This document shows, one piece after another, positions 2,020-29,737 of a stretch of 32,000 nt of DNA. Below the pieces are notes generated by a model that ran no database searches, was not told the DNA's origin, and saw only the letters and a program-made list of their open reading frames with translations. Position 1 is the stretch's first letter. The number at the start of each line of letters is the position of its first letter. The position numbers and the translations under genes are program-made. Source of the stretch: Candidatus Brocadiaceae bacterium (GTDB lineage Bacteria; Planctomycetota; Brocadiia; Brocadiales; Brocadiaceae); assembly GCA_039794405.1 (NCBI GenBank), contig JBDIVL010000003.1, positions 96,843 through 128,842 of the forward strand, given 5' to 3'.

Positions 2020-3288
2020 TCAATGTTCCAAAGGGTTGTACGGCTTACCGCCCTTCACGGGGGCTTCCGGCAGGGCTACCCTGCTCTTGCTCTTCACATC
2101 AAAAATTGTTAATGCACCCAAAGGATATTTACCTGTTGATACCATCCCGCGCAGGTTGTGATCATGCATGATCGTTATGCCCGCACCCAAATTGCAGGAT
2201 AAACATTTCCTTTGGCTTGCAAAGTGAGGAATCCTTACCAGCACATCAATCCTCTCGCCACTCGCAATGCAGAGGGTATCTTTTTCATAGCTGCTCTTGA
2301 GCTTTCTCCCATCCAGTGCAATTACTTCCATATGGTAACCGTGGGGATGGATTGCAAATACATGATCGGCGCCAATGGCCATAAAACGTAAAAGAACCGT
2401 TTCGTCTTCATAAGCTACGATTCTTGAACGTGGATCGTTTATAACGGAGCGCGGATGATAGAGGTTATCGGTGAACGTTCTTCCGTTAATTAAGAAATAA
2501 TCAGCCTTCCAATCCTGCAATCCATGAACAACACCGGCTTCCTGTAACTGTTCATTCGCCGTAGAAGACAACTCGCTAAAAAACAATGTATAGTCACGGT
2601 CATACTTGTATCCGTAAGCGGTCTTCGTTCTATCCTGATGGATAATAATAGGGAAATACATGCCAGCCAGAATATGATTAAAACTATCCACGTGGCAGTG
2701 TCCCATAAAAGAACCCTCATACTGAGGAGTCAATTCATACGCAAAAGACTTATGTTCTAAAACGGGATCAACGGGCAAAGAAGGCACACCGTCAACGGCC
2801 GGGGTTAAATCAAGACCGTGAAAATGGATCGTATGCGCCACATGGTTTATACCCGAATGTTCGTCTGCACAATGCATACCCGTATTATGCAAAACAATCC
2901 TGGCCTTTTCGCCAACAAAAAGGTGAATCGGATCACTAGGGACTTTTACAGGTTCTAAGAGTTGTTCTACGTGTTCCTTTGTGGTTACTTCTCCTACATT
3001 CTTAAAACTTCCTTTGGCATGAGTGTAACCCATTACCCACACTAATTCACCATTGGCCATTTCAACGTACCCGTCTGTGGTATAAAGATGGAATTCCCAC
3101 ACACCATCCTTGGTACGTTCTCCAAGAATATCCCCATTCGTTACATTGATTAGCTCTTGTTCTTCCTGACTCATATCCCAGCTTTCATTCTGTATTGGTT
3201 CTTCACCAAACACATTAAACATAACAGTATGCATACCAATGAAAAAAACAACCGTTGCCCATCTTATTTTCTCAAACATACACTTCAT
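2020..3288 (-). CDS. Secreted two-domain multicopper oxidase (type C arrangement, T1 copper in the N-terminal domain)
   Basis: It has a hydrophobic N-terminal signal-like segment. Copper motifs occur in the order HTIHFHG, GHCHVDSFNHILAGM, HPHG, MHDH. At 422 aa it fits two cupredoxin domains. Confidence 0.8.
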   Translation of the reverse strand: MKCMFEKIRWATVVFFIGMHTVMFNVFGEEPIQNESWDMSQEEQELINVTNGDILGERTKDGVWEFHLYTTDGYVEMANGELVWVMGYTHAKGSFKNVGEVTTKEHVEQLLEPVKVPSDPIHLFVGEKARIVLHNTGMHCADEHSGINHVAHTIHFHGLDLTPAVDGVPSLPVDPVLEHKSFAYELTPQYEGSFMGHCHVDSFNHILAGMYFPIIIHQDRTKTAYGYKYDRDYTLFFSELSSTANEQLQEAGVVHGLQDWKADYFLINGRTFTDNLYHPRSVINDPRSRIVAYEDETVLLRFMAIGADHVFAIHPHGYHMEVIALDGRKLKSSYEKDTLCIASGERIDVLVRIPHFASQRKCLSCNLGAGITIMHDHNLRGMVSTGKYPLGALTIFDVKSKSRVALPEAPVKGGKPYNPLEH

Positions 3289-3445: not shown

Positions 3446-3640
3446 CTATGCACGAACGAAACTGTCTGTAGCAGATGAGTTTCGTATGGGACACTTTAGG
3501 TGATTTTCCGTTTTACAAAACACTTCGGTTTCATAACGATTGGGATAGAGAGGCAGCGATAGTTCCCTATACACGTTGCATATTCCTCCTTTCATACTGG
3601 TACTTACAAATTCCTTGCAGACAGATCTTTTATCCTTCAA
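3446..3640 (-). CDS. Small 64-aa four-cysteine protein, unknown function
   Basis: A TTG start is preceded by AAGGAGGAA with a 7-nt spacer. It is co-oriented with the oxidase and 157 bp upstream of it. I recognise no family, and the antisense ORF 3475..3777 runs through a REP palindrome. Confidence 0.4.
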   Translation of the reverse strand: MKDKRSVCKEFVSTSMKGGICNVYRELSLPLYPNRYETEVFCKTENHLKCPIRNSSATDSFVRA

Positions 3641-3726
3641 AATTCTTCCTCCTTATTATCTTTACCAATGAATCAAGTTTTAAAAGTAACCGATATTGTA
3701 TAAGCAATCGGCTATCAGCGGTCAGA

Positions 3727-3756
3727 TGTAGGGGCATATTGCAATACGCCCCTACA
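3727..3756. repeat. REP-like palindrome TGTAGGGGC-atattgcaatac-GCCCCTACA
   Basis: 9-bp perfect arms, with a loop that is nearly palindromic itself. Degenerate relatives lie at 8886-8914 and 23908-23939. Flanking GCTATC/GATAGC segments add a further imperfect stem. Confidence 0.6.
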
Positions 3757-3945: not shown

Positions 3946-4314
3946 CTACTGCTCTTCCCATAATCTCTCCAGAGTCAATTCCAGTTCTTCAATATTTATA
4001 GGCTTAGTCAGGTAATCATCTGCGCCGAGTTTCATCGCTTCCACAGCAGTTTTCACGGAACTACAGGCAGTAACAACTACGATTGCCACGGGTTTATCCC
4101 TTTTTCTTATTTCATGTATTAGGGTTAATCCCCCCATTCCTGGCAGATCCATATCTGTTACGATAATATCAAACTTTTCCTCCGACAGGAGATTTAAAGC
4201 CTCATGGGCGGACAGAACACCAGCCACAGAATAACCGTCACCTGCCAATATCTTTGTTAGTCCACTTAGTGCATTTTTATCATCATCTACCAGCAGCAAT
4301 CTTGGCTTTGTCAT
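3946..4314 (-). CDS. Stand-alone response-regulator receiver (CheY-like), paralogue of the receiver of the EBP at 7315..8661
   Basis: MTKPRLLLVDDDKNAL...DIIVTDMDLPGMGG...TA..S...A...GADDYLTKP carries the acidic pocket, phospho-Asp, Thr and Lys positions. 91 of 122 positions are identical to the EBP N-terminus by hand alignment. I chose ATG 4314 over the ORF-track 4323. Confidence 0.9.
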   Translation of the reverse strand: MTKPRLLLVDDDKNALSGLTKILAGDGYSVAGVLSAHEALNLLSEEKFDIIVTDMDLPGMGGLTLIHEIRKRDKPVAIVVVTACSSVKTAVEAMKLGADDYLTKPINIEELELTLERLWEEQ

Positions 4315-4341
4315 AAAAATCATTTCACAAGAAAAATCTGT

Positions 4342-4752
4342 TTATTGATGGCCTGCATTTTTCAGAAACATACCAAATTTTTTATCTTCGTTTGTTATAT
4401 GGTTTGTCAACCAGTCACACAACTGCCGCTGGGTTTTTATTACGAGATGAGAGGTAGCACCATCTGCTTCAAATTCTTTTTTTAAGGTAGAAAAATCCTT
4501 GATAAATTGAGTATGCTCTGTCTTCTGCTTTGAATAACCACCGTAGTTATATTTCGTCATCAAGGCCTCTTCCGCTCCGAAGTGTTTCACGACATAATCA
4601 GCTAAATACGTAAGTACCTTACCGACCTCATCCTTTCCTTTACCCTGTCCCATTGCAGTCAGGAGATCACCTACCCTGGTAAAAATTCCTTTATGCTGGG
4701 TATCGACCAAATCTATACCTATTGACAAATCATCACTCCATTTTGTTGCCAT
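4342..4752 (-). CDS. Bacteriohemerythrin (hemerythrin-like di-iron protein)
   Basis: W-SDDLSIGIDLVDTQHKGIF, HFGAEE, TEHTQF and NHITNEDKK supply the H, HxxxE, H and HxxxxD ligand pattern. The protein is 136 aa, and a good SD (AAGGAAGGA) lies upstream. Confidence 0.9.
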   Translation of the reverse strand: MATKWSDDLSIGIDLVDTQHKGIFTRVGDLLTAMGQGKGKDEVGKVLTYLADYVVKHFGAEEALMTKYNYGGYSKQKTEHTQFIKDFSTLKKEFEADGATSHLVIKTQRQLCDWLTNHITNEDKKFGMFLKNAGHQ

Positions 4753-4879
4753 ATCTTATCCTTCCTTGTAGAATTATTTCCATTTTATAAAAGGTTCCTA
4801 ATGGCCTACCTGCCTGGATGAAACAAACCCCCTGGTTTTTCAAAAACATATCGAATTTTTATCTTTCTTTAAAACCATT

Positions 4880-4895
4880 AACAACTGTTGTACCA
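4880..4895 (-). promoter_or_regulatory. Candidate sigma54 (-24/-12) promoter for the hemerythrin-receiver operon
   Basis: The minus strand reads TGGTAC-AACAG-TTGTT. This keeps the GG-N10 spacing of TGGCAC-N5-TTGC but has T instead of C at -12. It is near-identical to the element at 7119-7134 and lies about 130 nt upstream of the start codon. Confidence 0.45.
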
Positions 4896-5009
4896 ATAAG
4901 CATCCAATCTCTCATAGAATTAATATATGTACTTGGAGTTTCATAGCTTAGACGAATGAAAATGAATTTTCCCATTTGATAAAACATTCACAGAAAGAAT
5001 TGAGAATGA

Positions 5010-5036
5010 TGTTTTTCGCGAAAATTTTGCAAAAAA
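5010..5036. promoter_or_regulatory. Candidate enhancer (UAS) box TGTTTTTC-GCG-AAAATTTTGC-AA-AAAA
   Basis: It matches 7248-7274 at 22 of 27 positions and contains the palindrome TTTTC-N2-GAAAA. It lies 115 nt beyond the -24 edge of the 4880-4895 element; the other copy lies 114 nt beyond its element. Confidence 0.4.
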
Positions 5037-5134
5037 CGGGGCGCAGGAGCAAAAAAAAATGAAAAAATTTCGGTTCTGTTTATCATCATTAACAAACACT
5101 TTTCATCGGTCTGAAGTACTGCTACTTTCGTGGC

Positions 5135-5378
5135 TTAACACATTCCGGCGTACTTTAGTAACACCAGTAGTTCAATGGGCTTATAAATAGCAAAATCAGG
5201 TATAACGTTACAGCCGGTGTTTGTCCGTCTTTTTAGCAGCTTGATAGCCTCTATACCACTGGCAGACAGGTAATCAGGTACTCTTTCTTACGAGGAATGA
5301 TCTTAAAAAGTCATATGTTTCAGGTTTATCATCTACTACCAGGATATGGCACTTGTGGACAGGTATTTTTTCAAGCAT
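5135..5378 (-). pseudogene. Decayed response-regulator receiver domain (frameshifted)
   Basis: The minus-strand translation gives MLEKIPVHKCHILVVDDKPETYDFLRSFLVRK, then after frame changes EYLITCLP / SGIEAIKLLKRR..IPDF...IELLVLLK. At least two frameshifts interrupt it and the region around the phospho-Asp is deleted. Confidence 0.5.
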
Positions 5379-5439
5379 GTGAGACGATGTTATGTCTGGT
5401 GATTGTCTCATTATTGGTATTTCCAGTCAAGCCTCATGA

Positions 5440-5921
5440 AGCCCAAAAAGTATTTTCGGTGGTGATAGTACAAAAGGTGATGGCAACAATTTGTTTAAAT
5501 TTCAAATTGGGGCCGGATCGAATATCTCAAGTGATTTGTTGAAGTTTGATCTGTTGAATGATTCAAATGTTTCATTGGGTACCAATAATACTGAATTTAG
5601 TATATAAAACTAAATTTGACGGCTAGTGCTACAAATGTTACTTCAATAGGCGGAATAAACGTATTGGGGAGTTTTGCTGCCGCAGGTTTTACAAACGCCC
5701 TTGACGGAACCGTAACCATTTGTTTTTTTGCTGATGTATCGAAAGCATTAAATTATATAGGTGTAACAATCAGCAGGTTAACCTATCAGGAAAATAGCCT
5801 TATGGTAAGCAAGGCGAGCATCGGATCCACACGGAGCCGGATTGAAGATGTACATATGGCAGAAGAACAACTTGTTGATGCAAAACTTCAGATACTGCAA
5901 CAGACCGCCGCAATAACGTAG
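5440..5921 (+). pseudogene. Flagellin remnant (central and C-terminal parts only, two frames)
   Basis: Frame 1 reads SIFGGDSTKGDGNNLFKFQIGAGSNISS... (flagellin FQIGA motif) and stops at 5605. Frame 3 from 5616 reads ...SRLTYQENSL...STRSRIEDVHMAEEQLVDAKLQILQQTAAIT, a flagellin C-terminal D1/D0 pattern. The N-terminal D0/D1 and the last ~15 aa are absent. Confidence 0.6.
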
Positions 5922-5929
5922 TGCGGCGG
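5905..5929. terminator. GC-rich hairpin CCGCCGCA-ataacgtag-TGCGGCGG between the convergent flagellin relic and ferredoxin gene
   Basis: 8-bp perfect GC-rich stem. The T-tails are poor on both strands, so function as a terminator is uncertain. Confidence 0.35.
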
Positions 5930-6048
5930 TATTCTCAAAACGAGTGATTGCTAAGCTTGAAAAGCCTCTCACATAGCAATATTCAGATGTTTCTTCTTTT
6001 AAAATCTCCTTATCTTCCGTTAAATTATCAACAAACAACAACCTTGGC

Positions 6049-6246
6049 CTATGTTTTGTATTTTATATACTGTGTAGGGCAGAGATATGCTGCCTGCTTG
6101 ATGCCTTCAGTAAAAGAAGCGATATTAGCACCTTGTTTAACCTGCGGACCTACGCCTGCTACAAATTCAAAAGCCCCTGATGCCTCTTCAATGCACATCG
6201 TACATTTAACACAATCACCTTCAAACCAAACAGTTTCTATCCTCAT
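6049..6246 (-). CDS. Small single-cluster ferredoxin
   Basis: MRIETVWFEGDCVKCTMCIEEASGAFEF...AAYLCPTQYIKYK has a CxxCxxC...CP cluster motif in about 65 aa. ATG 6246 with GAGGAGG upstream is preferred over the TTG at 6276. Confidence 0.7.
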   Translation of the reverse strand: MRIETVWFEGDCVKCTMCIEEASGAFEFVAGVGPQVKQGANIASFTEGIKQAAYLCPTQYIKYKT

Positions 6247-6279
6247 AATAATCAATTTCCTCCTCAATAAATTCAAAAA

Positions 6280-6326
6280 GTGAATAGTTAATAGAGGATA
6301 AAATACCCCCCCTACTAACTATTCAC
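6280..6326 (-). terminator. Intercistronic hairpin with T-tail between the protoglobin and ferredoxin genes (possible attenuator)
   Basis: On the minus strand GTGAATAGTTA ... TAACTATTCAC forms an 11-bp stem. The 25-nt loop contains a G7 run, and the stem is followed by TTTTTGAATTTATT and then the ferredoxin SD. Confidence 0.4.
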
Positions 6327-6347
6327 TAACTTATTCACTGTCTACCA

Positions 6348-7004
6348 TTACATCCAGGGAGCAAAATAATCAATGTGATAAACATCGATAATTAACCAGA
6401 AAAGTTTTGTCCATGCAGAGGTAATTCTCTGCAACTTTTCTGGCTCGTTCCTTAAAGTTTCGGCCAGAAAGTTAAATAAATACTGGTGGATGTAGCCCCA
6501 GAGCGCAATGTTTAGCCTTACTGGTATATACAGATCTTCAAAACCGAAGATCGGTACATGTACGGCGCCAACCCAGCGAACAAAATTCCAAAACTCTTCG
6601 TCCCATTTACATTCCAGGATCTTCAGGATAAACCTCCGCTGCCTCGCCCTCCGAATAGTGACATACTCTTTAGAAATCTTCCCAGTTTCATCCCTAAACC
6701 ATTTTGACAGCCAGGGGTCGTTGATAAGCTTTTCCCAATAAATATGATCAAGGATTGCCTCCAATTTCGGCGCTAAAATCTCTTTTGATTCCCTGATTGC
6801 TTCTGTGTCTTTATCTGTGAAGTTTACACATTGGGACATATACTCATAACGCTTCATAATATCGAGACTGGTATCCCGATAAAGATTCCATGATTTATTA
6901 AATTCGGGGATATCCAGAACAGAATTACGTTTACCAGCAGGAACCTTCTTCTCTGCTTCCATCGGAAACATCTTCATATAAGCATTCGCCATAACTGAAC
7001 TCAT
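6348..7004 (-). CDS. Single-domain protoglobin (globin-coupled-sensor-type globin without an output domain)
   Basis: It aligns by eye along its length with Methanosarcina protoglobin as I remember it: F-T-x-D-x-E-I...EILD..Y...P.L...F....G....KY....R.R...IL...D...IG..H. The putative proximal His sits in WVGAVHV. SD GGAG lies upstream. Confidence 0.8.
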   Translation of the reverse strand: MSSVMANAYMKMFPMEAEKKVPAGKRNSVLDIPEFNKSWNLYRDTSLDIMKRYEYMSQCVNFTDKDTEAIRESKEILAPKLEAILDHIYWEKLINDPWLSKWFRDETGKISKEYVTIRRARQRRFILKILECKWDEEFWNFVRWVGAVHVPIFGFEDLYIPVRLNIALWGYIHQYLFNFLAETLRNEPEKLQRITSAWTKLFWLIIDVYHIDYFAPWM

Positions 7005-7118
7005 CTACCATTTCTCCTCGTGAAAAAGTTGAAAATCCTGTACACTGCCATTTTGCTATTAATGTTTACCTTGCAAGGTTAGGAACGGCTTTATAACAGC
7101 CAAACCGCTTGTCATATA

Positions 7119-7134
7119 AACAACTAACGTACCA
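7119..7134 (-). promoter_or_regulatory. Candidate sigma54 (-24/-12) promoter for the protoglobin-ferredoxin operon
   Basis: The minus strand reads TGGTAC-GTTAG-TTGTT, the same as the 4880-4895 element outside the N5 spacer. It lies about 115 nt upstream of the start codon. Confidence 0.45.
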
Positions 7135-7247
7135 GAGACAGTCTCAACAATGTGCTGTTGGATGTAAGTACTTACAACAATGAAGTTTAAAAAATAAATT
7201 TGTTTTTCTTGCAGAAGAAACAGGACGAGGAGAAAAGGATTTTAAAA

Positions 7248-7274
7248 TGTTTTTCTGGAAAATTTTGCGGAAAA
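7248..7274. promoter_or_regulatory. Candidate enhancer (UAS) box TGTTTTTC-TGG-AAAATTTTGC-GG-AAAA
   Basis: Second copy of the 27-nt box at 5010-5036. It lies 114 nt beyond the -24 edge of 7119-7134 and 40 nt after the EBP stop codon. A partial TGTTTTTC half-site occurs at 7201-7208. Confidence 0.4.
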
Positions 7275-7314
7275 TATAGATGTGTTATGTAAAAGTGGTC
7301 GAAAATATTTCGTT

Positions 7315-8661
7315 TTAACCCCACTCCTTTACTTTATATTCAATTTTTCTGGTGGATATCCCTAACATTTTTGCAGCATCGCTTTTACTGCCGTGGGTCA
7401 TTTGAAGCGTTTTCAAAATAATCTCTTTTTCAGCTTCTTTTAATGAAGTTCCCATAGGAATCTTTATTGCCGGTATATCTCCTTTATATTGGACAATATT
7501 TCCCGGCAGGTGTTCTTCGGTAATCATAGTGCCTTTACAAAGCACAATTGCCCTTTCAATAATATTCTCCAGTTCCCTCACATTGCCTTGCCAGTGGTAG
7601 GTGCAAAGGGCTTCCATCGTCTGGGGAGTAAACCCATGAATTTCCTTCTTATATTTCTTTGCATATTTCACGACAAAAAAATGAGAAAGGACGGGGATAT
7701 CCTCCTTCCTTTCCCTTAACGGTGGTAAATGGATAGTAATAACATTTAATCGATAAAATAAATCTTCCCGAAATCTTCCTTCTGCAACTTCTTTCTCAAG
7801 GTTTCGGTTGGTTGCTGCAATCAGCCGGACATCTACTTTTATGGTCTTTTCCCCGCCAACACGTTCGAACTCACCTTTCTCCAAAATCCGGAGCAGTTTG
7901 ACCTGCACCTTGAGGCTCATCTCACCCACTTCATCCAAAAAAATGGTACCGCCATCGGCTAATTCGAACCGTCCTTTTCGTGATTGAATTGCACCGGTAA
8001 AGGCACCCTTTTCATGGCCAAAGAGTTCACTCTCCAGCACACCTTCTGATAAGGCAGCGCAATGTAAAGCGATAAAAGGCATGCATGCCCTGTCACTTCG
8101 ATAATGGAGTGCGTTAGCAACCAGCTCTTTTCCAGTTCCTGTTTCCCCCAGGATTAAGATTGAAGCCGTACTGGGGGCTACATCCTCTATCATTTTAAAT
8201 ATACCATGCATCTGTGGGGTACCACCGACAAGTTCTGAAAATTTATACTTATCCTTCAGTTTCTCCTTGAGTAATTGGTTTTGAACCACCAACTGTTGTT
8301 TTTCCCACAATTTTTCCAGCACCAGCTCTAATTCTTCAATATCCACCGGTTTCGTTAAGTAATCATCCGCTCCGCATTTAATGGCATCCACGGCTGTTTT
8401 AATGGAACTGTAGGCCGTAATCAATACAATCGCTAAAGAGCCATCCTTTTTTTTCGCTTCATGGATCAGGTTTAATCCCCCCATCCCCGGCAATTTCATA
8501 TCTGTTATGATGATGTCAAATTTCTTCTTAGATAAGAGATTCAATGCTTCATAACCAGAGGGGACGCCGGAAACGGCATATCCATCACTTGCCAGTATTT
8601 TTACTAATCCATCAAGTGCATTTTTATCGTCGTCAACGAGTAATAATCTTGGTTTCGTCAT
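7315..8661 (-). CDS. Sigma54-dependent response regulator (NtrC-family enhancer-binding protein: REC + AAA+ + HTH)
   Basis: It has a REC domain, Walker A GETGTGKE, the sigma54-contact loop EKGAFTGA, a Walker B/arginine-finger region and a C-terminal Fis-type HTH (AAKMLGISTRKIEYKVKEWG). Confidence 0.95.
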   Translation of the reverse strand: MTKPRLLLVDDDKNALDGLVKILASDGYAVSGVPSGYEALNLLSKKKFDIIITDMKLPGMGGLNLIHEAKKKDGSLAIVLITAYSSIKTAVDAIKCGADDYLTKPVDIEELELVLEKLWEKQQLVVQNQLLKEKLKDKYKFSELVGGTPQMHGIFKMIEDVAPSTASILILGETGTGKELVANALHYRSDRACMPFIALHCAALSEGVLESELFGHEKGAFTGAIQSRKGRFELADGGTIFLDEVGEMSLKVQVKLLRILEKGEFERVGGEKTIKVDVRLIAATNRNLEKEVAEGRFREDLFYRLNVITIHLPPLRERKEDIPVLSHFFVVKYAKKYKKEIHGFTPQTMEALCTYHWQGNVRELENIIERAIVLCKGTMITEEHLPGNIVQYKGDIPAIKIPMGTSLKEAEKEIILKTLQMTHGSKSDAAKMLGISTRKIEYKVKEWG

Positions 8662-8722
8662 CTTGTTTTAAATTGGACCTTTCGGCAACTTTCCGTGCTG
8701 ATATACCTATGATAATTTATGT

Positions 8723-8788
8723 AGGATGGGTGAATCGTTATCGCACCCATCAGAAAAAATTGTTGATGGGCTTTGCTTGACCCATCCT
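8723..8788. repeat. Four alternating GATGGG / CCCATC segments (tandem REP-like hairpins with alternative pairings)
   Basis: GATGGGTG 8725-8732 pairs with CACCCATC 8744-8751, and GATGGG 8765-8770 pairs with CCCATC 8781-8786. The outer AGGATGGG/CCCATCCT can also pair. On the minus strand the first hairpin is followed by AACAATTTTTTCT. Confidence 0.5.
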
Positions 8789-8885
8789 GTTCTTTGAGAT
8801 GTCCATAAATGAACTTATCACTACCGGCAAACTTATATTTTGGGATTGTCTAAAAAGGTACAAAATCGATTTTTTTCATACAACA

Positions 8886-8932
8886 TGTAGGGCGTATTGT
8901 AATACGTTCCTGCAAATTTGGACAACCCCGTG
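8886..8932. repeat. Degenerate REP palindrome (TGTAGGGCGTATTGTAATACGTTCCTGCA) fused to a TTTGGACAACCCC arm
   Basis: The left arm and loop match the 3727-3756 element. The right arm CGTTCCTGCA is shared with the 23908-23939 copy. The 3' part matches the arm at 185-201. Confidence 0.45.
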
Positions 8933-9085
8933 CTACCCTTTTAGCGTTAAAATCCTCAATATATCCTGAACCGAAATATTGTTCGGTTTCATCCTTTGGA
9001 TACTATAAGTGGCTAATTAATCAACCATCCAATTAAACTTGCATCCTGCTTTTCATCCGTTTTGAGGTTTTTGCCTTGCTGGTTA

Positions 9086-10180
9086 TTAGCGTACCGGTAT
9101 TGCAACAACAAATTTAGTTCCCTGGGATGATGGTTCCAGCCTTATTGTGCCTCCATGGGCATGGATAATATTTTGAGCAAAGGAAAGTCCTATTCCGGTA
9201 CCTCCATCCTTGGTGGTATAAAACAAATTGAATATCTTATCTTTAATCTCATCTGGAATTCCTATCCCTGTATCCTGGCAGGAGATGAATATTTCATACT
9301 CGTTCCGTTCCGTACGAACATATAACTTCCCCCCATCCGGCATTGCCTCAATACCGTTAATAAAAATATTTAAAATTGCTTGCTTTATCTTATCCTTGTC
9401 TACGCTTATTTTGGGTAGTTCACACGCCGTGTCTAATTCTACCTGAATACCATGTAATTGTGCCTGAGGTATGATCAATGAGACAACTTCCTTGAGTATT
9501 TCCCTTACATCAATACGGCTTTTGTTAAGTTCTCCTGTCCTGGAAAAGTGCAGACATTCTCCGACAAATTCACTTAAACGGTTAAGTTCTTTACGGACTA
9601 TGAATGCGATCTCAAGTAATCCTTCTTTTGATTTATCGCTTATTTTGTATATTTTCTGTATTTCACGCTCTAACACTAGCATCTGGAGGTTCATGGCATT
9701 CAATGGATTTTTAATCTCATGTGCCAGTTCGGCGGCAAATGAACCCAACGTAGATAAGGTTTTAGACCTAAGGACTTCGTCTGAAAATCTTTTTCTTTCC
9801 GTTATATTCTCTAAAATAGAGATAATATGGGTTACCTTTCCTTCTGTGTCTTTGATAGCCGACACACTTGCTTCTACCCACAATACACTTCCATCACCCC
9901 GTTTAATCAGGAGTTCCCTCGAACCCTGAGAAAATTTTCCCTGAAATACGTCCATGCCAGGGCAAAATTTTTCCGTTAAACACATACCGGTAGAAGTATG
10001 GCATTGGAAGATCTCACCGCAGTCTTTACCGATAATCTTCTCTCTTGGCCATTTTGTAATCTCCTCACATGCCCGATTAAAAAACAGCACATTCCTGTTA
10101 CTATCCTGGATCATAATCCCTTTGCTTGCACAGTCCAGGGCCTGGTGAAACATTTGAATTATTGTATCAATATTTCTCAT
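9086..10180 (-). CDS. Cytoplasmic PAS-domain sensor histidine kinase (PAS + HisKA + HATPase_c)
   Basis: No TM segment is present. The PAS core carries four Cys (GKDCGEIFQCHTSTGMCLTEKFCPG). It has H-box AHEIKNPLNAM, N-box ILNIFINGIEAM, G1 DTGIGI and G2 GGTGIGL. I chose ATG 10180; the ORF track opens at TTG 10204. Confidence 0.9.
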   Translation of the reverse strand: MRNIDTIIQMFHQALDCASKGIMIQDSNRNVLFFNRACEEITKWPREKIIGKDCGEIFQCHTSTGMCLTEKFCPGMDVFQGKFSQGSRELLIKRGDGSVLWVEASVSAIKDTEGKVTHIISILENITERKRFSDEVLRSKTLSTLGSFAAELAHEIKNPLNAMNLQMLVLEREIQKIYKISDKSKEGLLEIAFIVRKELNRLSEFVGECLHFSRTGELNKSRIDVREILKEVVSLIIPQAQLHGIQVELDTACELPKISVDKDKIKQAILNIFINGIEAMPDGGKLYVRTERNEYEIFISCQDTGIGIPDEIKDKIFNLFYTTKDGGTGIGLSFAQNIIHAHGGTIRLEPSSQGTKFVVAIPVR

Positions 10181-10488
10181 GGTTGTTTTAGCTAAGATTA
10201 TCAAAATTTCAATAAAAGTAAATGCTTTTTATGATTTTACCAAAAGCAATTAATTTGATTTGCTGTTTTTGTCTTTCAATTTTGATTTTTACCTCCAATA
10301 CTATAACCAGTACGAGCCGGAAGAGCCGAAATCCGAGTTGTATGGGAAAAAAGTTTTTACTGTAAATGATATTCAGCCATTCAACCCACTATTTTTGCTA
10401 AAAATATCGAATTCTTTTGGAAAGATATTAGCGTGAAAGCAACTTCATTGCGGGGTTATTTATGGAACGGGATTAGCTAATAAAACGC

Positions 10489-22879: not shown

Positions 22880-23794
22880 ATGAGAAACTACGCGAAAGTA
22901 TTTGTGCCTGCTGTATGGGTTTTTGTTATAAGCGTAAGTACGGTATTTGCATCTTCTGGTGGTCCTCCTGATGGACGAACAGGCTCTCCTGTCGATAACA
23001 AAACATGTCGGGACGATTGTCACAGCACCTATGAACTTAATGAGGGAAATGCCAAATTTACGATTTCTGCACCAAATAGTTTTGTGCAAGGTCAAGTTGT
23101 AGATATAAACATCTCTTTTAGTGATTCCAGCACTGCTAAACACGGTTTTGAGCTTTCTGCCCTGGATGCAGGCAACAACCATGTAGGTACTTTTAGCAAT
23201 ATTGATGATACTACTCAGACTGCTGACGGAAATTATATAAAGCATACCTCTATTGGCAGCAGTCAGTCCGGAAATGCCAGTTGGAGTGTACAGTGGACGG
23301 CACCAACTTCTGAAGTACAGGTACCTGTAACCTTTTATGCTTCAGGGAATGAAGCAAATGGAGATAGTACTCCTCAAGGGGATTATATCTACACCACTAC
23401 TGCACAAATAGACAGTGCTGCAACACCAACGGTAACTGCTACTCCAGTAATTACACCAACAACAATCCCGGTATGTGAACCTGATTTTATTTCTATTCAG
23501 AAACGTTTGAAATTAACACTCGGTGAAAGTAAAACGATAATTGCTACAGTTACAGGATTAAATGATTGTAAATCAGAAGGGGTAACAGTCAATGCTGTAG
23601 TTAAAACCGGGAAAACACGCGTTACCGTTGATCCCGATATTGCCACAGCAGATGAAAACGGCCAGGTAACTTTCACTGTTACGGCAGGTCAAAAGAAAGG
23701 TAATGCAAAAATACTGTTTACTGTAGAGGATAGCGAAGGGCAAGTTTTTAAAACTTTTATCATCGTGAAGATACGAAAGGTGCTAAAGAAATAA
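22880..23794 (+). CDS. Secreted Reeler-like beta-sandwich protein with a C-terminal bacterial Ig-like domain
   Basis: Signal peptide, then GGPPDGRTGSPVDNKTCRDDCH, GFELSALD, WSVQWTAPT and VTFYASGNEANGDSTPQGDYIY. I remember this recurring signature as Reeler-like, but the family name is uncertain. A Thr/Pro linker and an Ig-like repeat follow. Confidence 0.7.
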   Translation: MRNYAKVFVPAVWVFVISVSTVFASSGGPPDGRTGSPVDNKTCRDDCHSTYELNEGNAKFTISAPNSFVQGQVVDINISFSDSSTAKHGFELSALDAGNNHVGTFSNIDDTTQTADGNYIKHTSIGSSQSGNASWSVQWTAPTSEVQVPVTFYASGNEANGDSTPQGDYIYTTTAQIDSAATPTVTATPVITPTTIPVCEPDFISIQKRLKLTLGESKTIIATVTGLNDCKSEGVTVNAVVKTGKTRVTVDPDIATADENGQVTFTVTAGQKKGNAKILFTVEDSEGQVFKTFIIVKIRKVLKK

Positions 23795-23907
23795 TTATCC
23801 GTACTTTTGTGTGAAACCATATGCGGTTGATAGCAATTTTAGTACCTTAAAAATGCTTTGGGAAAATGTGTTTTTTGCGTGTAGAACAAACCCTTCGGTT
23901 TGTTTTC

Positions 23908-23939
23908 CTGCAGGAACGCAAGGCTAAACCTCGCCTTAC
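23908..23939. repeat. Degenerate REP palindrome (reverse orientation): TGTAAGGCG...CGTTCCTGCA
   Basis: The reverse complement TGTAAGGCGAGGTTTAGCCTTGCGTTCCTGCA shares both arms with 8886-8914. The adjacent hairpin AACAAACC-cttc-GGTTTGTT lies at 23884-23903. Confidence 0.4.
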
Positions 23940-23963
23940 ATTTCTCTTCTGTCCATTCGGATC

Positions 23964-24010
23964 AGGGATGGTCACAAATGTTTTGTGATCATCCCTTTCT
24001 TTTTTGTTTG
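23964..24010 (+). terminator. Strong rho-independent terminator after the Reeler-like gene
   Basis: AGGGATGGTCACAAA-tgt-TTTGTGATCATCCCT forms a 15-bp stem with one G-T pair, followed by TTCTTTTTTGTTTG. Confidence 0.8.
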
Positions 24011-24150
24011 ATATAAAGCCAACGGATGTTAAACTAATAAAATTTATGAAAATATCTTTCTGAAATCTTTGTTAAAATTTGTTTTCTCGTGAAAAAAATC
24101 CTTCTGAAAATTCTATACATTTTTATTACTAAAGATAGGGATATTTGTTG

Positions 24151-25215
24151 ATGAAAAAAATTGCAATTACTCTTTTTTGCATACTTCTGGGTTTCTGTTC
24201 TTCCGTGCGTGCGGACACAATCACTTTGAGGAATATTAATAAGGATATTGATATTGAGGTTATGGGTGTTACCAGTGACCATGTAAATGTGGTAATAGAA
24301 AAAAAAGCCTTAAAATCTTTGAATATACAACTTGTAAACGATAAGAATTATCCCGATGCTATCTTTCTGGTTGGGACAGATGCGGCTATAGAATGTAAAA
24401 TCAAAGAAATTACAGAAGATGTCATAGCCATGCTTATTCCCACTTCCATGATTTCTTCCCTTCACATGACATTCTTCCCATCTGATGATAAAAATAAACA
24501 ATTGAAGATGGCTCCTGTATTCAATAGCTCAAGTCCCGCAGAAATTGGGAATAATCCAAAGACATCAGCGCATCTAGCTATGAAAGAAGAAAAAAAGGGT
24601 CAAATGCAAGAAGATTATCGATTCGGATCTGAAATACCTAAAGATATTATTGAGGATACAATAGTTGATGAGATAAGGACTTCTGGGGAGAAAGCAGATA
24701 TTGGTAAGGATTATCGACTAAAGCTCATAGGGAAGAAAACAAAGAATTTTCCCGGTGAAAAGGGTGATAGGATTGAGTTACAGGAAAGGCCTATAGGTAA
24801 TGAGTCTGTTGTAGAGGAAGAAGAACTGCTGGAGGATGAAGTCGATGAAGGGAATTTGGAGCAAGAAAAACCACTTATTCAAGACAGAAATTTAGGTGCT
24901 GTTGAAGGAAAAATATTCCATAGCGGGAAACCTTTGGCTGATTGTCAGGTGAGTTTGCAGAGATTGGAAAAAGGCGGGTTACTATCAAAGGGATATCGGC
25001 CGATTGAAGGTGCCACAGAATATGTGACTATTACGAATAAAGATGGGATATATCGCTTCGCGAATGTACCTCCAGGCTTGTATAAATTGTACTGGAGGTC
25101 TCATTCAGAAGAAACATGGGTAAGGCGATTTAAGATGGAACCGGATGTTATTGTTGAAGCAAATAAATTGACAAATCCTAAAGTTATTGAAACCTTAAAG
25201 AGAACATTAAATTAG
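24151..25215 (+). CDS. Secreted protein with an acidic linker and a C-terminal carboxypeptidase-regulatory-like (CarboxypepD_reg) domain
   Basis: Signal peptide MKKIAITLFCILLGFCSSVRA and a Glu-rich low-complexity middle. The C-terminus GAVEGKIFHSGKPLADCQVSL...TITNKDGIYRFANVPPGLYKLYW is typical of that beta-sandwich. Confidence 0.7.
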   Translation: MKKIAITLFCILLGFCSSVRADTITLRNINKDIDIEVMGVTSDHVNVVIEKKALKSLNIQLVNDKNYPDAIFLVGTDAAIECKIKEITEDVIAMLIPTSMISSLHMTFFPSDDKNKQLKMAPVFNSSSPAEIGNNPKTSAHLAMKEEKKGQMQEDYRFGSEIPKDIIEDTIVDEIRTSGEKADIGKDYRLKLIGKKTKNFPGEKGDRIELQERPIGNESVVEEEELLEDEVDEGNLEQEKPLIQDRNLGAVEGKIFHSGKPLADCQVSLQRLEKGGLLSKGYRPIEGATEYVTITNKDGIYRFANVPPGLYKLYWRSHSEETWVRRFKMEPDVIVEANKLTNPKVIETLKRTLN

Positions 25216-25554
25216 TCTCTCTGTTTATAAAAGTAGCAAGTGTTTCGTTTGAGAAAAATACATAACATGTTTGATTTAGTGTATATAAATAATTTTGTAA
25301 TATTAAATCTGAAATCATCTTTTCAATAATGAAATCTTTTGCAGGTTTGCTAAAGTTTAGCGGTTACTTTGCTTGTTGAGACGTATGAAAAAATAAAAAC
25401 TTGTAAAGCAAGGATTTATGTATTTTTTTTTGTTTTTTTGCTTTTTTACTAAGTTAAGGAATAAATATTGTTAAACTATGAAACCTATAAATAAGGATCA
25501 CGGTAGTAGATTTTTAAATTGGCTTTAATTTTCTTCTTATGACCGAATTTATAA

Positions 25555-25583
25555 TTGACAAATTCATAAAATATATGTAATAC
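25555..25583 (+). promoter_or_regulatory. Sigma70 promoter candidate TTGACA-N17-TAATAC heading the respiratory cluster
   Basis: Consensus -35, a 17-nt spacer and a 4/6 -10. It lies at the end of a 440-bp very AT-rich intergenic region, about 90 nt before the cupredoxin start. Confidence 0.5.
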
Positions 25584-25672
25584 TAATTATCTTGGGTTTT
25601 TCGTTTTGAACATGATTCTTATGCACATGAGTAAAATTTATAGTAACTTAGAAGATGCAGATGGAGGTAAAG

Positions 25673-26431
25673 ATGGTAAAAAGTTTGCGATTTGTTGCAA
25701 TTGCCGGTAGTCTAGCATTTGGTGTGGTGGGTGGTTTGTGCAGTATAAACAATGTTATAATGGCAAAAGATAAGGCGCCGGCCTATCAGGAAGTTGAGGT
25801 AAAAGATGGTGGGACGATTGTTGGTACCGTTAAATTTGATGGTGATATACCTGCTGCAAAGGTGTTAAAGATTGATAAGGATGAACAGACATGCGGCCAT
25901 GATAATAGGCAGTCAGAGGAATTGGTAATTAACGGGGAGTCTAAAGGAATAAAGAATGCAGTCGTGTCTCTTGTTGATATTGCAGCCGGCAAGAAGGCTG
26001 ATACAACAACTGCTGTATTAGATCAAAAAGAATGTGTTTTTGCTCCTCATATACTCGCAGTTTCAGCTGGAACCAGCGTTGACCTTTTAAACAGTGATAA
26101 TATAATGCATAATCTCCATTCCTGGTCGATTAAGAACCCAGCATTTAATGAAGGTGTATCAGGTGGCGGAAAGCTTACAAAGAAATTTGATATTCCTGAG
26201 ATGGTCAAAATAACCTGTGACGTGCATAAATGGATGAGTTCTTTTGTTGTGGTAAAGCCGAATCCCTATTTTGCTGTAACAGATGAGAATGGGCGTTTTA
26301 AGATTGAGAATGTACCTGCGGGAACTTACAAGATTGAAGCCTGGCAGGAAAAGCTTGGGAAGAAGACTGGCGAAGTTACCGTTAAGTCAAAAGAAGAATC
26401 AGTAGTAGATTTTGCTTATGCGAAAAAATAA
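25673..26431 (+). CDS. Periplasmic type-1 (blue) copper protein with an amicyanin-like ligand loop, fused to a CarboxypepD_reg-like domain
   Basis: Signal peptide, FAPH, then CDVHKWM (C-x2-H-x2-M). The C-terminus reads DENGRFKIENVPAGTYKIEAW. ATG 25673 with GGAGG upstream is preferred over 25655. Confidence 0.8.
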   Translation: MVKSLRFVAIAGSLAFGVVGGLCSINNVIMAKDKAPAYQEVEVKDGGTIVGTVKFDGDIPAAKVLKIDKDEQTCGHDNRQSEELVINGESKGIKNAVVSLVDIAAGKKADTTTAVLDQKECVFAPHILAVSAGTSVDLLNSDNIMHNLHSWSIKNPAFNEGVSGGGKLTKKFDIPEMVKITCDVHKWMSSFVVVKPNPYFAVTDENGRFKIENVPAGTYKIEAWQEKLGKKTGEVTVKSKEESVVDFAYAKK

Positions 26432-26495
26432 CTGTGATTAATGATTATAGACTTATGGATTGTGTAATTTACTCGTTTGAAAAGGCGTATTGCTA

Positions 26496-28631: not shown

Positions 28632-28645
28632 ATTTTGGGGATGGT

Positions 28646-28683
28646 CTGTGATAAAAGTTTTATTATAAAATTTTTAGTCACAG
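28646..28683 (+). other. AT-rich intercistronic stem-loop (about 17 bp with one bulge) just after the bd-like gene stop
   Basis: CTGTGATAAAAGTTTTA-tta-TAAAATTTTTAGTCACAG. There is no T-tail, so it may be an RNA stability or processing element rather than a terminator. Confidence 0.3.
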
Positions 28684-28741
28684 TTAAGGAGCTAAATTAG
28701 GTAAATCTTAAGATGGTATAATGAAGACATAGAGAGAACTT

Positions 28742-29692
28742 ATGAATAAAAGCATGTTAAAAATTACGGCTTTTGGAATTGCAGTTATTGGGTTTTATAT
28801 CTATATTACCGTGTATGTAGCTGGGCTTTCCGGTACCGGCGGGGGAGAATCCGCTGGCGGGGTGAGCCCTGAGGCTGGTGAAAAGATATTCTGGGGTGAT
28901 GGGCAGTGTGGTACTTGTCATAAAATCGGAACAAGCGGGAGCGCAACGAGAGGTCCTGACCAGGAAGGTTTGTCTTCGCGTGCAGAAGAACGCGCAAAAG
29001 AATTGGGGCTGGCTTCTGGTCTTGATTACCTTGTGGAATCTATTGTAGATCCAGAAAAATATATTGTCAAAGGTTATGATAAGATTATGCCACGGGTTTA
29101 TGATCCGCCGATTATGTTGTCACGGGAAAAAATCCTCGCAGTTATTGCCTATCTTCAGACGTTAGGTGGAGAGGCCGATTTGAATGCGGTTATGAAGTAC
29201 AAAGATAAAATTCCTGAAGCTTCTAAGAAAAAAGTAAAACCATGGGTACCACCTGTTGTAGTAGATGCAAAAGAGGGAGAGGGAGTGTTTTTCGATGAGA
29301 CGCGTCCGGTTACCTGTGGTAAATGTCATGTGGTTAATGGAAAGGGGAAGAAGGTTGGGCCGGAGTTAACGGGAATAGGCGCTATTCAAACTCCGGAGTA
29401 TTTTGTCGAGTCGATTCTTACACCGAGTGCTAAGATAGTAAAAGGTTATGAGACGATGTATGTTATTACAACGGACGGTATACCTTATAACGGCCTGATA
29501 AAAAGTGAGACTGATGAAGAAATAGTCTTACTGAAAGAAGAGAGTGGAGAGATTGAAGAGGTTGTGATTCCAAAGAGTGATATTGAAGAAATGAAAAAGC
29601 AAGAGGTTTCGATTATGCCGGGTAATATCGGTGAGTTATTAAGTGTAAAGGATTTCTACGGTATTGTATCGTTTTTACAAAGTTTAAAATAG
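28742..29692 (+). CDS. Membrane-anchored dihaem c-type cytochrome
   Basis: N-terminal TM helix plus two CxxCH sites (CGTCH, CGKCH). The second domain resembles the planctomycete-type haem-binding domain (GPELTGIG...ESIL.PS..I..GY...T.DG). Confidence 0.85.
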   Translation: MNKSMLKITAFGIAVIGFYIYITVYVAGLSGTGGGESAGGVSPEAGEKIFWGDGQCGTCHKIGTSGSATRGPDQEGLSSRAEERAKELGLASGLDYLVESIVDPEKYIVKGYDKIMPRVYDPPIMLSREKILAVIAYLQTLGGEADLNAVMKYKDKIPEASKKKVKPWVPPVVVDAKEGEGVFFDETRPVTCGKCHVVNGKGKKVGPELTGIGAIQTPEYFVESILTPSAKIVKGYETMYVITTDGIPYNGLIKSETDEEIVLLKEESGEIEEVVIPKSDIEEMKKQEVSIMPGNIGELLSVKDFYGIVSFLQSLK

Positions 29693-29737
29693 GTTAAGTT
29701 GTCATAAGTGACTGAATCAATTGACAGGAGTTAATTA

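Follow-up and report, generated by a model that had tools for sequence, protein, structure and literature searches.

Gene content of the locus

We analysed a 32 kb stretch of contig JBDIVL010000003.1 (the window), in which a sensor kinase and a sigma-54 activator are encoded next to a protoglobin, a ferredoxin, a hemerythrin, a stand-alone receiver and a multicopper oxidase. This gene group is referred to here as the island. Genes were identified with Pfam and NCBIfam profile searches, and the locus was compared with 44 species-level genome loci and 80 metagenome loci, using tblastn for synteny. The host is an anaerobic anammox bacterium of the Brocadiaceae: its protoglobin shared 96% identity with the protein of an uncultured Brocadiaceae metagenome-assembled genome, 91% with that of Ca. 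Loosdrechtia and 88% with that of Ca. Jettenia. No known RNA families or tRNAs were found in the window. The following features were annotated, listed by their positions in the window.

9086-10204, minus strand: sensor histidine kinase (Pfam PAS, HisKA and HATPase_c)
7315-8661, minus strand: NtrC-type activator (Pfam REC, Sigma54_activat and HTH_8)
7116-7321, minus strand: promoter module P1 (profile hidden Markov model (HMM) from other genomes, phylogenetic footprint, pattern counts)
6348-7004, minus strand: protoglobin, 218 aa (Pfam PF11563)
6279-6327, minus strand: hairpin between protoglobin and ferredoxin (inverted repeat, folding)
6049-6246, minus strand: small ferredoxin, 65 aa from a likely start at 6246, in an open reading frame (ORF) reaching 6276 (weak Fer4_13 match, invariant Cys)
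5616-5921, plus strand: flagellin C-terminal fragment (Pfam Flagellin_C on a called 85-aa gene)
5150-5426, minus strand: 3′ remnant of a MEDS-PAS hybrid histidine kinase (blastn against the intact gene in locus L055)
4878-5077, minus strand: promoter module P2 (same profile HMM as P1)
4342-4752, minus strand: bacteriohemerythrin, 136 aa (NCBIfam NF033749)
3946-4323, minus strand: stand-alone receiver (Pfam REC)
3724-3755, minus strand: 32-nt perfect palindrome or hairpin (sequence, folding)
3446-3640, minus strand: 64-aa ORF with four Cys, accessory (no Pfam or NCBIfam match)
2020-3288, minus strand: two-domain multicopper oxidase (Pfam; N-terminal hydrophobic signal region)
22880-30508, plus strand: displaced bd-like/cytochrome c module (Pfam, hydrophobicity, synteny)

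A preliminary description, drawn from the DNA letters alone, had listed eight genes in this order and had taken the host for an anaerobe. The profile searches bore out every named gene, and the database matches of the protoglobin, all of them from anammox bacteria, bore out the lifestyle. It had also placed pseudogene debris between the ferredoxin and the hemerythrin; this debris consists of the flagellin fragment and the kinase remnant, which lie on opposite strands.

We read this gene group as the proximal half of an anammox-specific sigma-54 regulon that would respond to oxygen and nitric oxide (NO) by the mechanism proposed below, and give this reading a probability of about 50%. Its two parts differ in strength. 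The regulatory wiring, as predicted from the DNA, is well supported by comparative evidence. The oxygen/NO function is plausible, judging from the protein families present and from neighbouring oxidase and aerotolerance genes.

Two predicted sigma-54 promoter modules

The protoglobin and hemerythrin units had been described as carrying the same -24/-12-like element and the same 27-nt box at the same distance. The element, TGGTAC-N5-TTGTT, was found at 4880-4895 and 7119-7134, and these were the sole matches to TGGYAY-N5-TTGYW in the 32 kb, where 0.25 were expected. The two copies of the box (5010-5036 and 7248-7274) were identical at 23 of 27 positions, with 0.00 such pairs expected by chance. 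Elements and box were therefore upheld, and the distance between box and promoter differed by 1 nt (115 vs 114 nt in the two modules).

Each module contains two CG(A/C)AA-N3-TTTC dyads, 41-43 bp apart and located ~115 and ~158 bp upstream of the -24 element. In P1, dyad A (7301-7312, CGAAATATTTTC) and dyad B (7258-7269, CGCAAAATTTTC, within the 27-nt box) are followed by an AT-rich spacer and then by the -24/-12 element (TGGTACGTTAGTTGTT). In P2 the corresponding sites are dyad A (5061-5072, CGAAATTTTTTC), dyad B (5020-5031, TGCAAAATTTTC, again within the box) and the -24/-12 element (TGGTACAACAGTTGTT). The dyads, which are putative activator sites, fall within the range of 80-200 bp upstream of sigma-54 promoters and are kept across genera. 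A dyad spacing of CGAAA-N4-TTTCG, considered at one point, was wrong, as the conserved spacing is N3.

For a phylogenetic footprint, protoglobin upstream regions from 20 genomes were aligned on the -24 element. The first conserved block was a dyad, (A/G)CGAAAT(T/A)TTTTC, and the second another dyad, CCGCAAA(T/A)TTTTCG, 41-43 bp downstream of it. An A-rich stretch, a short ACTTAYAAC-like block and TGGYAY-N5-TTGT made up the rest, and the spacers between all blocks had diverged. The 27-nt box of the preliminary description thus corresponds to the second dyad plus its flank, and is part of a larger enhancer.

A profile HMM was then made from 15 orthologous promoters of other genomes, with the window left out. 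It matched the window at exactly two places, 7321-7116 (E 5.5e-18) and 5077-4878 (E 9.4e-11). Both matches covered essentially the whole model (positions 5-203 in the case of P2), and the next-best match in the window had an E-value of about 1. Overall P1 and P2 were only ~49% identical, with nothing but the motif blocks and their spacing in common, and P2 orthologues in three other genomes (L055, L005 and L021) were 73-76% identical to the P2 of the window. As P1 and P2 keep their blocks at such low overall identity, it is the blocks and not the spacers that are under constraint.

These results bear on the possibility that the shared elements are relics of a segmental duplication or chance similarities of AT-rich DNA, with no co-regulation. 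The region is indeed AT-rich, the locus has been rearranged (it contains debris and a probable inversion), and the sigma-54 pattern taken alone was matched in 2 of 100 shuffles. However, neither relics nor chance would be expected to yield two strong matches to a profile built outside the window and nothing else below an E-value of about 1. Nor would they leave two sequences of ~49% identity with the same blocks at the same spacing, or blocks conserved across genera and in the P2 orthologues of three other genomes. This explanation is largely refuted and is now hardly tenable.

The -24 GG and the GG-N10 spacing were present at both sites. All Brocadiaceae, the window included, had GT as the -12 dinucleotide, and the Kuenenia loci and the two Scalindua loci with a match had the canonical GC. 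The Kuenenia loci and these two Scalindua loci had (T/A)GGCA(C/T)-N5-TTGC with dyad-like sites upstream, one of which, in Kuenenia, was a perfect palindrome (AACGAAATTATTTCGTT); there the protoglobin lacks an adjacent kinase-activator pair. In the other Scalindua loci no -24/-12 match was detected within the 420 nt scanned. RpoN (kuste3730) is encoded in the sister genus Kuenenia and was found in the Kuenenia proteome.

The kinase-activator spacer (8662-9085) measured 424 nt in the window, against 3-304 nt in relatives. It contains a palindrome, ACCGAACAATATTTCGGT (8970-8987), that resembles the enhancer dyads with one extra spacer base, and which could be an autoregulatory site or a chance occurrence.

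Taken together, these results make it plausible that one sigma-54 two-component system controls the two units. The preliminary description had proposed that the shared promoters tie the units to one regulator. This wiring is favoured by the co-conservation of the genes and by the out-of-window profile, which found P1 and P2 only; the part of the claim that made the hemerythrin a core target did not hold, as described below. We suggest that the promoter module was duplicated, so that the downstream genes would keep the same control after insertions had split the operon.

Gene order in anammox relatives

Kinase, activator, promoter, protoglobin and ferredoxin (where present), receiver and multicopper oxidase were found co-directionally in about 25 loci from Brocadia, Jettenia, Loosdrechtia and relatives. 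Four layouts were distinguished. The first, in Brocadia, runs kinase-activator-P1-protoglobin-ferredoxin-receiver-oxidase. The second, in Jettenia, Loosdrechtia and groundwater relatives, has the same genes followed by a co-directional bd-like/cytochrome c module. The third, found in seven metagenome loci (L058, L064, L065, L067, L070, L072 and L082), runs kinase-activator-P1-receiver-oxidase-Reeler and onwards without protoglobin and ferredoxin, and here the promoter lies immediately before the receiver (profile E-values down to 1.8e-39). The fourth is that of the window lineage, in which an insertion-prone gap after the ferredoxin is followed by P2, hemerythrin, receiver, Cys ORF and oxidase.

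Co-occurrence in related genomes had been put forward as a check on the original idea. Kinase, activator, protoglobin, ferredoxin and receiver did co-occur, and the hemerythrin did not, being missing at all 44 species-level loci. One Brocadia genome had P2 between ferredoxin and receiver without any hemerythrin; it follows that P2 serves the receiver and oxidase genes in all places where these have been split from P1. On these layouts, the predicted conserved targets are the protoglobin-ferredoxin pair and the receiver-oxidase pair. Protoglobin, ferredoxin and receiver also stayed together in three loci without an adjacent kinase and activator (L017, L018 and L045).

The module at 22880-30508 encodes a Reeler-domain protein, a 356-aa protein, a CarboxypepD_reg protein, a bd subunit-I-like membrane protein (713 aa, about 14 hydrophobic segments) and two c-type cytochromes. 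In 11 loci (L006, L007, L008, L009, L054, L064, L065, L067, L070, L072 and L082) it follows the receiver and oxidase in the same direction. In the window it lies on the opposite strand about 19 kb away, and inverting ~1.9-22.5 kb would recreate the arrangement of L054. The module was apparently split from the island by an inversion; no inverted repeats were found at the presumed breakpoints. In relatives the island is roughly twice the extent given in the preliminary description. The G+C content at 24001-26000, over the 356-aa and CarboxypepD_reg genes, was 33-35%, compared with about 40% elsewhere.

Sensor kinase and activator

The kinase contained no hydrophobic segment (maximum KD19 0.92) and is for this reason considered soluble; its true start is likely the ATG at 10180. 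It had been described as a soluble PAS kinase with a core of four Cys. A soluble protein remains the prediction, and the count was revised: in an alignment of 11 orthologues the PAS core had five invariant Cys and one His, in the motif FFNxACEEITKW..GKDCGxxFxCHTSTGMCLTEKxCPG with the spacing C-x14-C-x5-CH-x6-C-x5-CP. A marine orthologue of 46% identity kept the Cys5-His set at slightly different spacing. The nearest solved PAS domain was that of the haem-PAS oxygen sensor DosP of E. coli, and the Cys block aligned with the DosP haem-binding helix. Searching for homologues of the isolated PAS domain gave no more than 8 short fragments. A search of representative sequences was swamped by multi-PAS proteins and yielded one true relative (P0104, 56% identity), located on a 2.5-kb contig without gene context.

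The activator belongs to the NtrC family of enhancer-binding proteins, as had been proposed. Its receiver, its AAA+ sigma-54 domain and its C-terminal Fis-type helix-turn-helix were recognised by Pfam (Response_reg 3e-28, Sigma54_activat 7e-72, HTH_8 2e-10) and the GAFTGA motif was read in the translation. Against named regulators (NCBIfam equivalogs), the best matches were AtoC, NtrC and ZraR, all below their cut-offs (e.g., AtoC, 490 vs 714). The activator gene adjoined the kinase gene in all Brocadiaceae loci that hold the pair.

Kinase-activator pairs were also found in other settings. In four loci (L059, L060, L062 and L080, about 9445-9757) the kinase-activator pair was followed only by a divergent 121-aa receiver, and the spacer there contained a long inverted repeat of TTCGAAAT-like units in place of the promoter module. 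Marine, Scalindua-like loci (L073-L081) had orthologues of the kinase (46%) and the activator (62%), with genes for a NapC/NirT cytochrome and succinate dehydrogenase/fumarate reductase upstream and a REC-PAS-kinase-REC hybrid downstream.

Protoglobin and ferredoxin

The protoglobin is a cytoplasmic single-domain protein with a strong match to PF11563 (87.6 bits against a cut-off of 25, 1.2e-24). All 49 of its database matches were from anammox bacteria, at an identity of at least 67%, and all five named anammox genera were represented among them. His149, the predicted proximal (F8) haem ligand, aligned with His120 of the Methanosarcina acetivorans protoglobin (MaPgb) and was invariant in 44 anammox sequences. 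His87, Cys132, His173 and His210 were likewise invariant in these 44 sequences and are absent from the M. acetivorans protein. In the AlphaFold2 model (pLDDT 79) the F-helix and FG region, residues 147-159, was of low confidence. The best Foldseek matches of the model were to MaPgb (TM 0.72-0.80, rmsd 2.7-2.8 Å); after the archaeal protoglobins came the globin sensor domains of AfGcHK, GsGCS and HemAT.

The ferredoxin scored 21.5 bits with Fer4_13, under the Pfam cut-off of 24.5. Its CxxCxxC...CP pattern, a single-cluster 4Fe-4S motif, was invariant in 19 orthologues, and outside Kuenenia and Scalindua the gene was always directly downstream of the protoglobin. A single-domain protoglobin beside a small ferredoxin, as first described, is thus what the Pfam match and the invariant Cys motif point to. 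The spacer between the two genes contains a hairpin (6279-6327, -29.3 kcal/mol, z = -7.7) followed by UUUUU, and hairpins of differing sequence were found at this place in most of the 19 loci folded (L005-L045). The hairpin probably acts as a partial terminator or stabilises the 3′ end of the mRNA. This suggests that the protoglobin is expressed to a different extent than the genes behind it.

The second-best structural matches, being sensor domains, raise the possibility that the protoglobin is itself a stand-alone oxygen or NO sensor that modulates the kinase or the receiver, as in NmpU/AfGcHK, and that the oxidase is the real output. In Myxococcus xanthus, a described system links an NtrC-like regulator and a phospho-sink receiver to a protoglobin domain (PMC6211767), and the protoglobin-ferredoxin-receiver loci without an adjacent kinase and activator would suit such a role. 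The position of the gene speaks for an effector, however, as it lies downstream of the regulated promoter and not upstream of the signalling genes. The protoglobin is also always paired with the ferredoxin, which implies redox turnover; the high abundance of the Kuenenia protein (see below) is more like that of an enzyme or a buffer; and several genomes run kinase, activator, promoter, receiver and oxidase without a protoglobin in the locus. We regard a sensory protoglobin as decidedly unlikely.

Hemerythrin, receiver and insertions

The preliminary description had named a bacteriohemerythrin and a stand-alone receiver that copies the receiver of the activator, and both assignments proved correct. 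The hemerythrin scored 123.9 bits with NF033749, whose cut-off is 84 bits, and its best solved relative was DcrH-Hr of Desulfovibrio vulgaris (6.6e-21). Six of the seven di-iron ligands (H, HxxxE, HxxxH, HxxxxD) were present. In place of the first His of HxxxH, which DcrH-Hr and other bacteriohemerythrins have, the window protein has Gln76, and the aligned anammox orthologues all have Gln as well. Brocadia orthologues (63-67% identity) were located inside chemotaxis (che) clusters, between the methyl-accepting chemotaxis protein (MCP) and CheW. Judging from this distribution, the hemerythrin is a late, lineage-specific recruit from a chemotaxis cluster and not a core member of the island.

The stand-alone receiver was 74.6% identical in protein sequence to the receiver domain of the activator (70% over 300 nt) and, as read from the alignment, keeps the conserved Asp, Thr and Lys positions. 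It is the faster-evolving of the two: its copies averaged 67% mutual identity, against 84% among activator receivers. The receiver was always the gene that precedes the oxidase.

Of the debris, the remnant at 5150-5426 is a frameshifted receiver domain, with 74-80% identity (blastn) to the end of an intact 765-aa gene in the close relative L055. This intact MEDS-PAS hybrid kinase lies in the same position, upstream of P2 and the hemerythrin. In the closest genome (L005, 11535-14478), the contig ends in a copy of P2, and the gene of a 901-aa PAS-GAF-PAS-GGDEF-EAL protein fills the gap between this copy and the ferredoxin. The stretch behind the ferredoxin gene is an insertion hot spot for signalling genes.

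Multicopper oxidase and Cys ORF

A small Cys-containing ORF and a secreted two-domain multicopper oxidase had been reported to follow the receiver, and we recovered both, the oxidase with complete copper motifs and a signal region. It is 422 aa long, and the motifs HFH, HCH..H..M, HPH and HDH were invariant in 10 orthologues, which were 81-88% identical. A type-1 Cys-His-Met site together with an HCH motif in domain 1 corresponds to the type C layout. The 26 solved relatives were multicopper oxidases, laccases or related cupredoxin proteins, and the best were 2zwn (a two-domain laccase from a metagenome) and 3g5w, whose deposited title is "Multicopper oxidase type 1". We take 3g5w to be the two-domain blue copper oxidase of Nitrosomonas europaea, presumably encoded in the nitrite-responsive nirK cluster of that species. 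An assignment of the window protein as NirK was ruled out by the HCH motif, in which a His directly follows the type-1 Cys; none of the 26 solved relatives was a nitrite reductase. The Cys ORF was conserved only in the window, L054, L008 and L009, and was absent from Brocadia.

No separate sigma-54 motif was found in the receiver-oxidase spacers. The oxidase is counted in the regulon because the order promoter-receiver-oxidase is invariant. The palindrome at 3724-3755 (ATGTAGGGGCGTATTGCAATATGCCCCTACAT; -25.2 kcal/mol, z = -4.6) is not followed by a U-tract. A degenerate copy at 8885-8914, in the kinase-activator spacer, does not fold, and the protoglobin-ferredoxin hairpin of L045 has the same GTAGGGGCG...CGCCCCTAC ends. 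The palindrome and the L045 hairpin may represent a family of repetitive extragenic palindrome (REP)-like elements.

A two-component system beside a multicopper oxidase is the classic layout of copper resistance. The island might accordingly serve copper or iron homeostasis, with the PAS domain sensing Cu(I) or another thiophilic metal, the oxidase acting as a cuprous oxidase or ferroxidase, and the Cys ORF encoding a metallochaperone. The Cys5-His motif of the kinase would agree with this, and the best NCBIfam match of the oxidase was copper_res_A, though at 62.6 vs 479 bits it was far below the cut-off. Another anammox multicopper-oxidase domain shows oxygen-dependent ferroxidase activity (bioRxiv 10.64898/2026.07.28.741245). 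However, the window oxidase has two domains and no Met-rich segments (14 Met in 422 aa), and Brocadia lacks the Cys ORF. With its cytoplasmic location and its link to sigma-54, the kinase also differs from the copper two-component systems known to us, which are periplasmic-sensing and OmpR-type. Metal homeostasis also leaves the protoglobin, the ferredoxin, the hemerythrin and the neighbouring respiratory oxidases unexplained, and we consider it very unlikely.

Proposed response to oxygen and nitric oxide

Under the oxygen/NO reading, the Cys/His pocket of the kinase would bind a cofactor that is labile to redox changes or gases, such as an Fe-S cluster. Exposure to oxygen, probably together with the pathway intermediate NO, would alter this cofactor and lead to phosphorylation of the activator, which would then oligomerise on the dyads and remodel the sigma-54 holoenzyme at P1 and P2. 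In the cytoplasm, the protoglobin would consume oxygen and/or NO while its dedicated 4Fe-4S ferredoxin keeps it reduced, and the chemistry of the globin may be that of an NO dioxygenase or a reductase, akin to a two-component flavohaemoglobin. The exported copper oxidase would reduce oxygen to water outside the cytoplasm, and in relatives it may be fed by the adjoining bd-like/cytochrome c module. Once induced, the stand-alone receiver would compete for the phosphate of the kinase, acting as a sink and providing negative feedback. In the window lineage, the hemerythrin from the chemotaxis cluster might add oxygen binding or buffering.

The neighbourhoods of the protoglobin-ferredoxin pair are informative in this respect. 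In two groundwater clades (L045, 4431-14804; L051, 5193-12298) the pair, with or without the receiver, was flanked by CcoN/CcoO-type oxidase genes, and on the opposite flank by a BatA/DUF58/MoxR aerotolerance operon in one and an NnrS/COX1/DUF1858 protein in the other. The pair thus occurs repeatedly beside oxygen-reducing enzymes of three kinds, which is the strongest, though circumstantial, argument for an oxygen role. Genes for cbb3 oxidase have been listed for Scalindua and Kuenenia and not for Brocadia or Jettenia (PMC10156729). The inventories of anammox oxygen defence that we consulted name no globin, hemerythrin, dedicated regulator or copper oxidase of this type (PMC10156729, PMC8862662).

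Several observations weigh against the regulon as we propose it. The -12 element is TTGT and not the canonical TTGC in all Brocadiaceae. Strong hairpins separate the protoglobin from the ferredoxin and, at 3724-3755, the receiver from the Cys ORF, and the oxidase is linked to P2 by no promoter or terminator arrangement of its own. The copper-resistance layout discussed above counts on the same side. The PAS structure model was unusable for judging the clustering of the Cys residues (pLDDT 48, with residues 36-86 below 50). Finally, the Kuenenia protoglobin kustd2153, annotated as "hypothetical", was abundant in an anoxic steady-state culture (signal 2.4e9; PMC11897245 Table S1). This was similar to an HAO paralogue, and hydrazine synthase alpha had a signal of 1.8e11 in the same culture (PMC11897245 Table S1). 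At least in Kuenenia, therefore, this is not an emergency protein for oxygen only. A globin that consumes NO with oxygen and is reduced by a ferredoxin would fit both the neighbourhoods and this abundance, because anammox cells hold free NO. In the same proteome of Kuenenia CSTR1, kustc0315 (44.8 kDa, with a signal peptide and a multicopper-oxidase domain), a possible counterpart of the window oxidase, was nearly undetectable under anoxic conditions (PMC11897245 Table S1).

The same wiring could instead have NO or nitrite as both signal and substrate, with no role for oxygen, so that the regulon bounds free NO, an obligatory anammox intermediate. The protoglobin-ferredoxin pair would then be an NO reductase or buffer, and nitrite, NO or hydroxylamine would be the substrate of the copper oxidase. 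The abundance of the Kuenenia protoglobin in anoxic culture fits such a role, as does the distribution of the family, whose 49 matches were all from anammox bacteria and covered the five named genera. In one clade an NnrS/DUF1858-type protein adjoins the pair, and the oxidase relative 3g5w presumably belongs to a nitrite-responsive cluster. Against this, the oxidase has the full HCH signature of the trinuclear cluster of oxygen-reducing multicopper oxidases, with no copper nitrite reductase among its solved relatives. The neighbours in other clades are oxygen reductases (CcoN/CcoO, bd-like) and a Bat aerotolerance operon, and the recruited hemerythrin is of the oxygen-sensing DcrH type. We see this version as possible, if on the unlikely side.

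A more elaborate form of the oxygen reading would join the island and the bd-like module into an inducible oxygen-scavenging chain, with electrons passing from quinol to the bd-like protein, then through c-type cytochromes to the periplasmic copper oxidase and to oxygen. In it, the protoglobin-ferredoxin pair would be an NO dioxygenase, and the Cys5-His PAS domain, as the switch, a new class of Fe-S gas sensor. We put this forward as a speculative and rather doubtful extension; if true, it would be how anammox bacteria of the Brocadia and Jettenia type survive micro-oxic episodes while holding free NO.

Both in wastewater treatment and in oxygen-minimum zones, anammox is limited by its sensitivity to oxygen. 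If the regulon reading is true, the island would be a sensor-to-effector circuit for oxygen/NO stress in anammox bacteria, with defined DNA sites and a candidate new cofactor-binding PAS sensor, and it would give bacterial protoglobins a physiological role. It would also supply genes that can serve as markers of aerotolerance.

Comparison with known systems

The combination of genes had initially been thought not to be a described system. The literature we searched, which extended to protoglobin, hemerythrin, kustd2153 and the bd-like protein in anammox, contained no description of it, in agreement with that view. The island is not a member of any named system; in kind, we class it as a sigma-54 two-component stress regulon.

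The nearest analogue is NmpRSTU of Myxococcus xanthus, with AfGcHK of Anaeromyxobacter. Both it and, as proposed, the island have an oxygen-linked phosphorelay, a module of the protoglobin fold, a phospho-sink receiver and an NtrC-like activator (PMC6211767). In NmpRSTU/AfGcHK the protoglobin is fused to the kinase as its sensor, and the output is pilus gene expression (PMC6211767). In the island, by contrast, the protoglobin is free, lies downstream of a regulated promoter and is paired with a ferredoxin, the presumed sensor is a PAS domain of the Cys5-His kind, and redox metalloproteins are the predicted output. The kinase has no domains besides PAS, HisKA and HATPase, and the 218-aa protoglobin is encoded on its own, so this is not a globin-coupled kinase. 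Archaeal protoglobins (Methanosarcina acetivorans, Aeropyrum pernix) are predicted to share the fold, the proximal His and the single-domain form with the window protein, which is only ~24% identical to them and differs in its extra invariant residues, its ferredoxin partner and its sigma-54 control.

A functional parallel is provided by NorR/FhpR, sigma-54 enhancer-binding proteins that switch on a flavohaemoglobin or flavorubredoxin from a multi-site upstream enhancer. In both cases a sigma-54 activator would control a globin detoxifier. NorR works as a one-component regulator without a kinase and detects NO directly through a non-haem iron bound by its GAF domain, whereas the activator of the island bears a receiver and has a separate kinase, and its target is a protoglobin with a separate ferredoxin in place of a fused FAD reductase.

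As for the sensor, NreB is an oxygen-sensing Fe-S PAS kinase with the cluster motif C-x2-C-x11-C-x2-C. The island kinase resembles it in being a cytoplasmic PAS kinase with a pocket of four or more Cys, a functional analogy only, as its motif is C-x14-C-x5-CH-x6-C-x5-CP instead. The PAS domain nearest in sequence is that of DosP, whose haem His is not conserved in the island kinase.

The hemerythrin is closest to DcrH-Hr, the hemerythrin domain of a Desulfovibrio vulgaris chemoreceptor, which recalls the che clusters that hold the Brocadia orthologues. Unlike DcrH-Hr it is stand-alone and not fused to an MCP, lies behind a sigma-54 promoter, and has one ligand His replaced by Gln. The oxidase shares two cupredoxin domains, four HxH motifs, a type-1 site in domain 1 and secretion with the type C two-domain oxidases (mgLAC, 2zwn; 3g5w; E about 1e-17 to 1e-18). 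It differs from 2zwn and 3g5w in an N-terminal extension of ~100 residues before the aligned region, and in its partners, namely the receiver, the protoglobin and the bd-like module.

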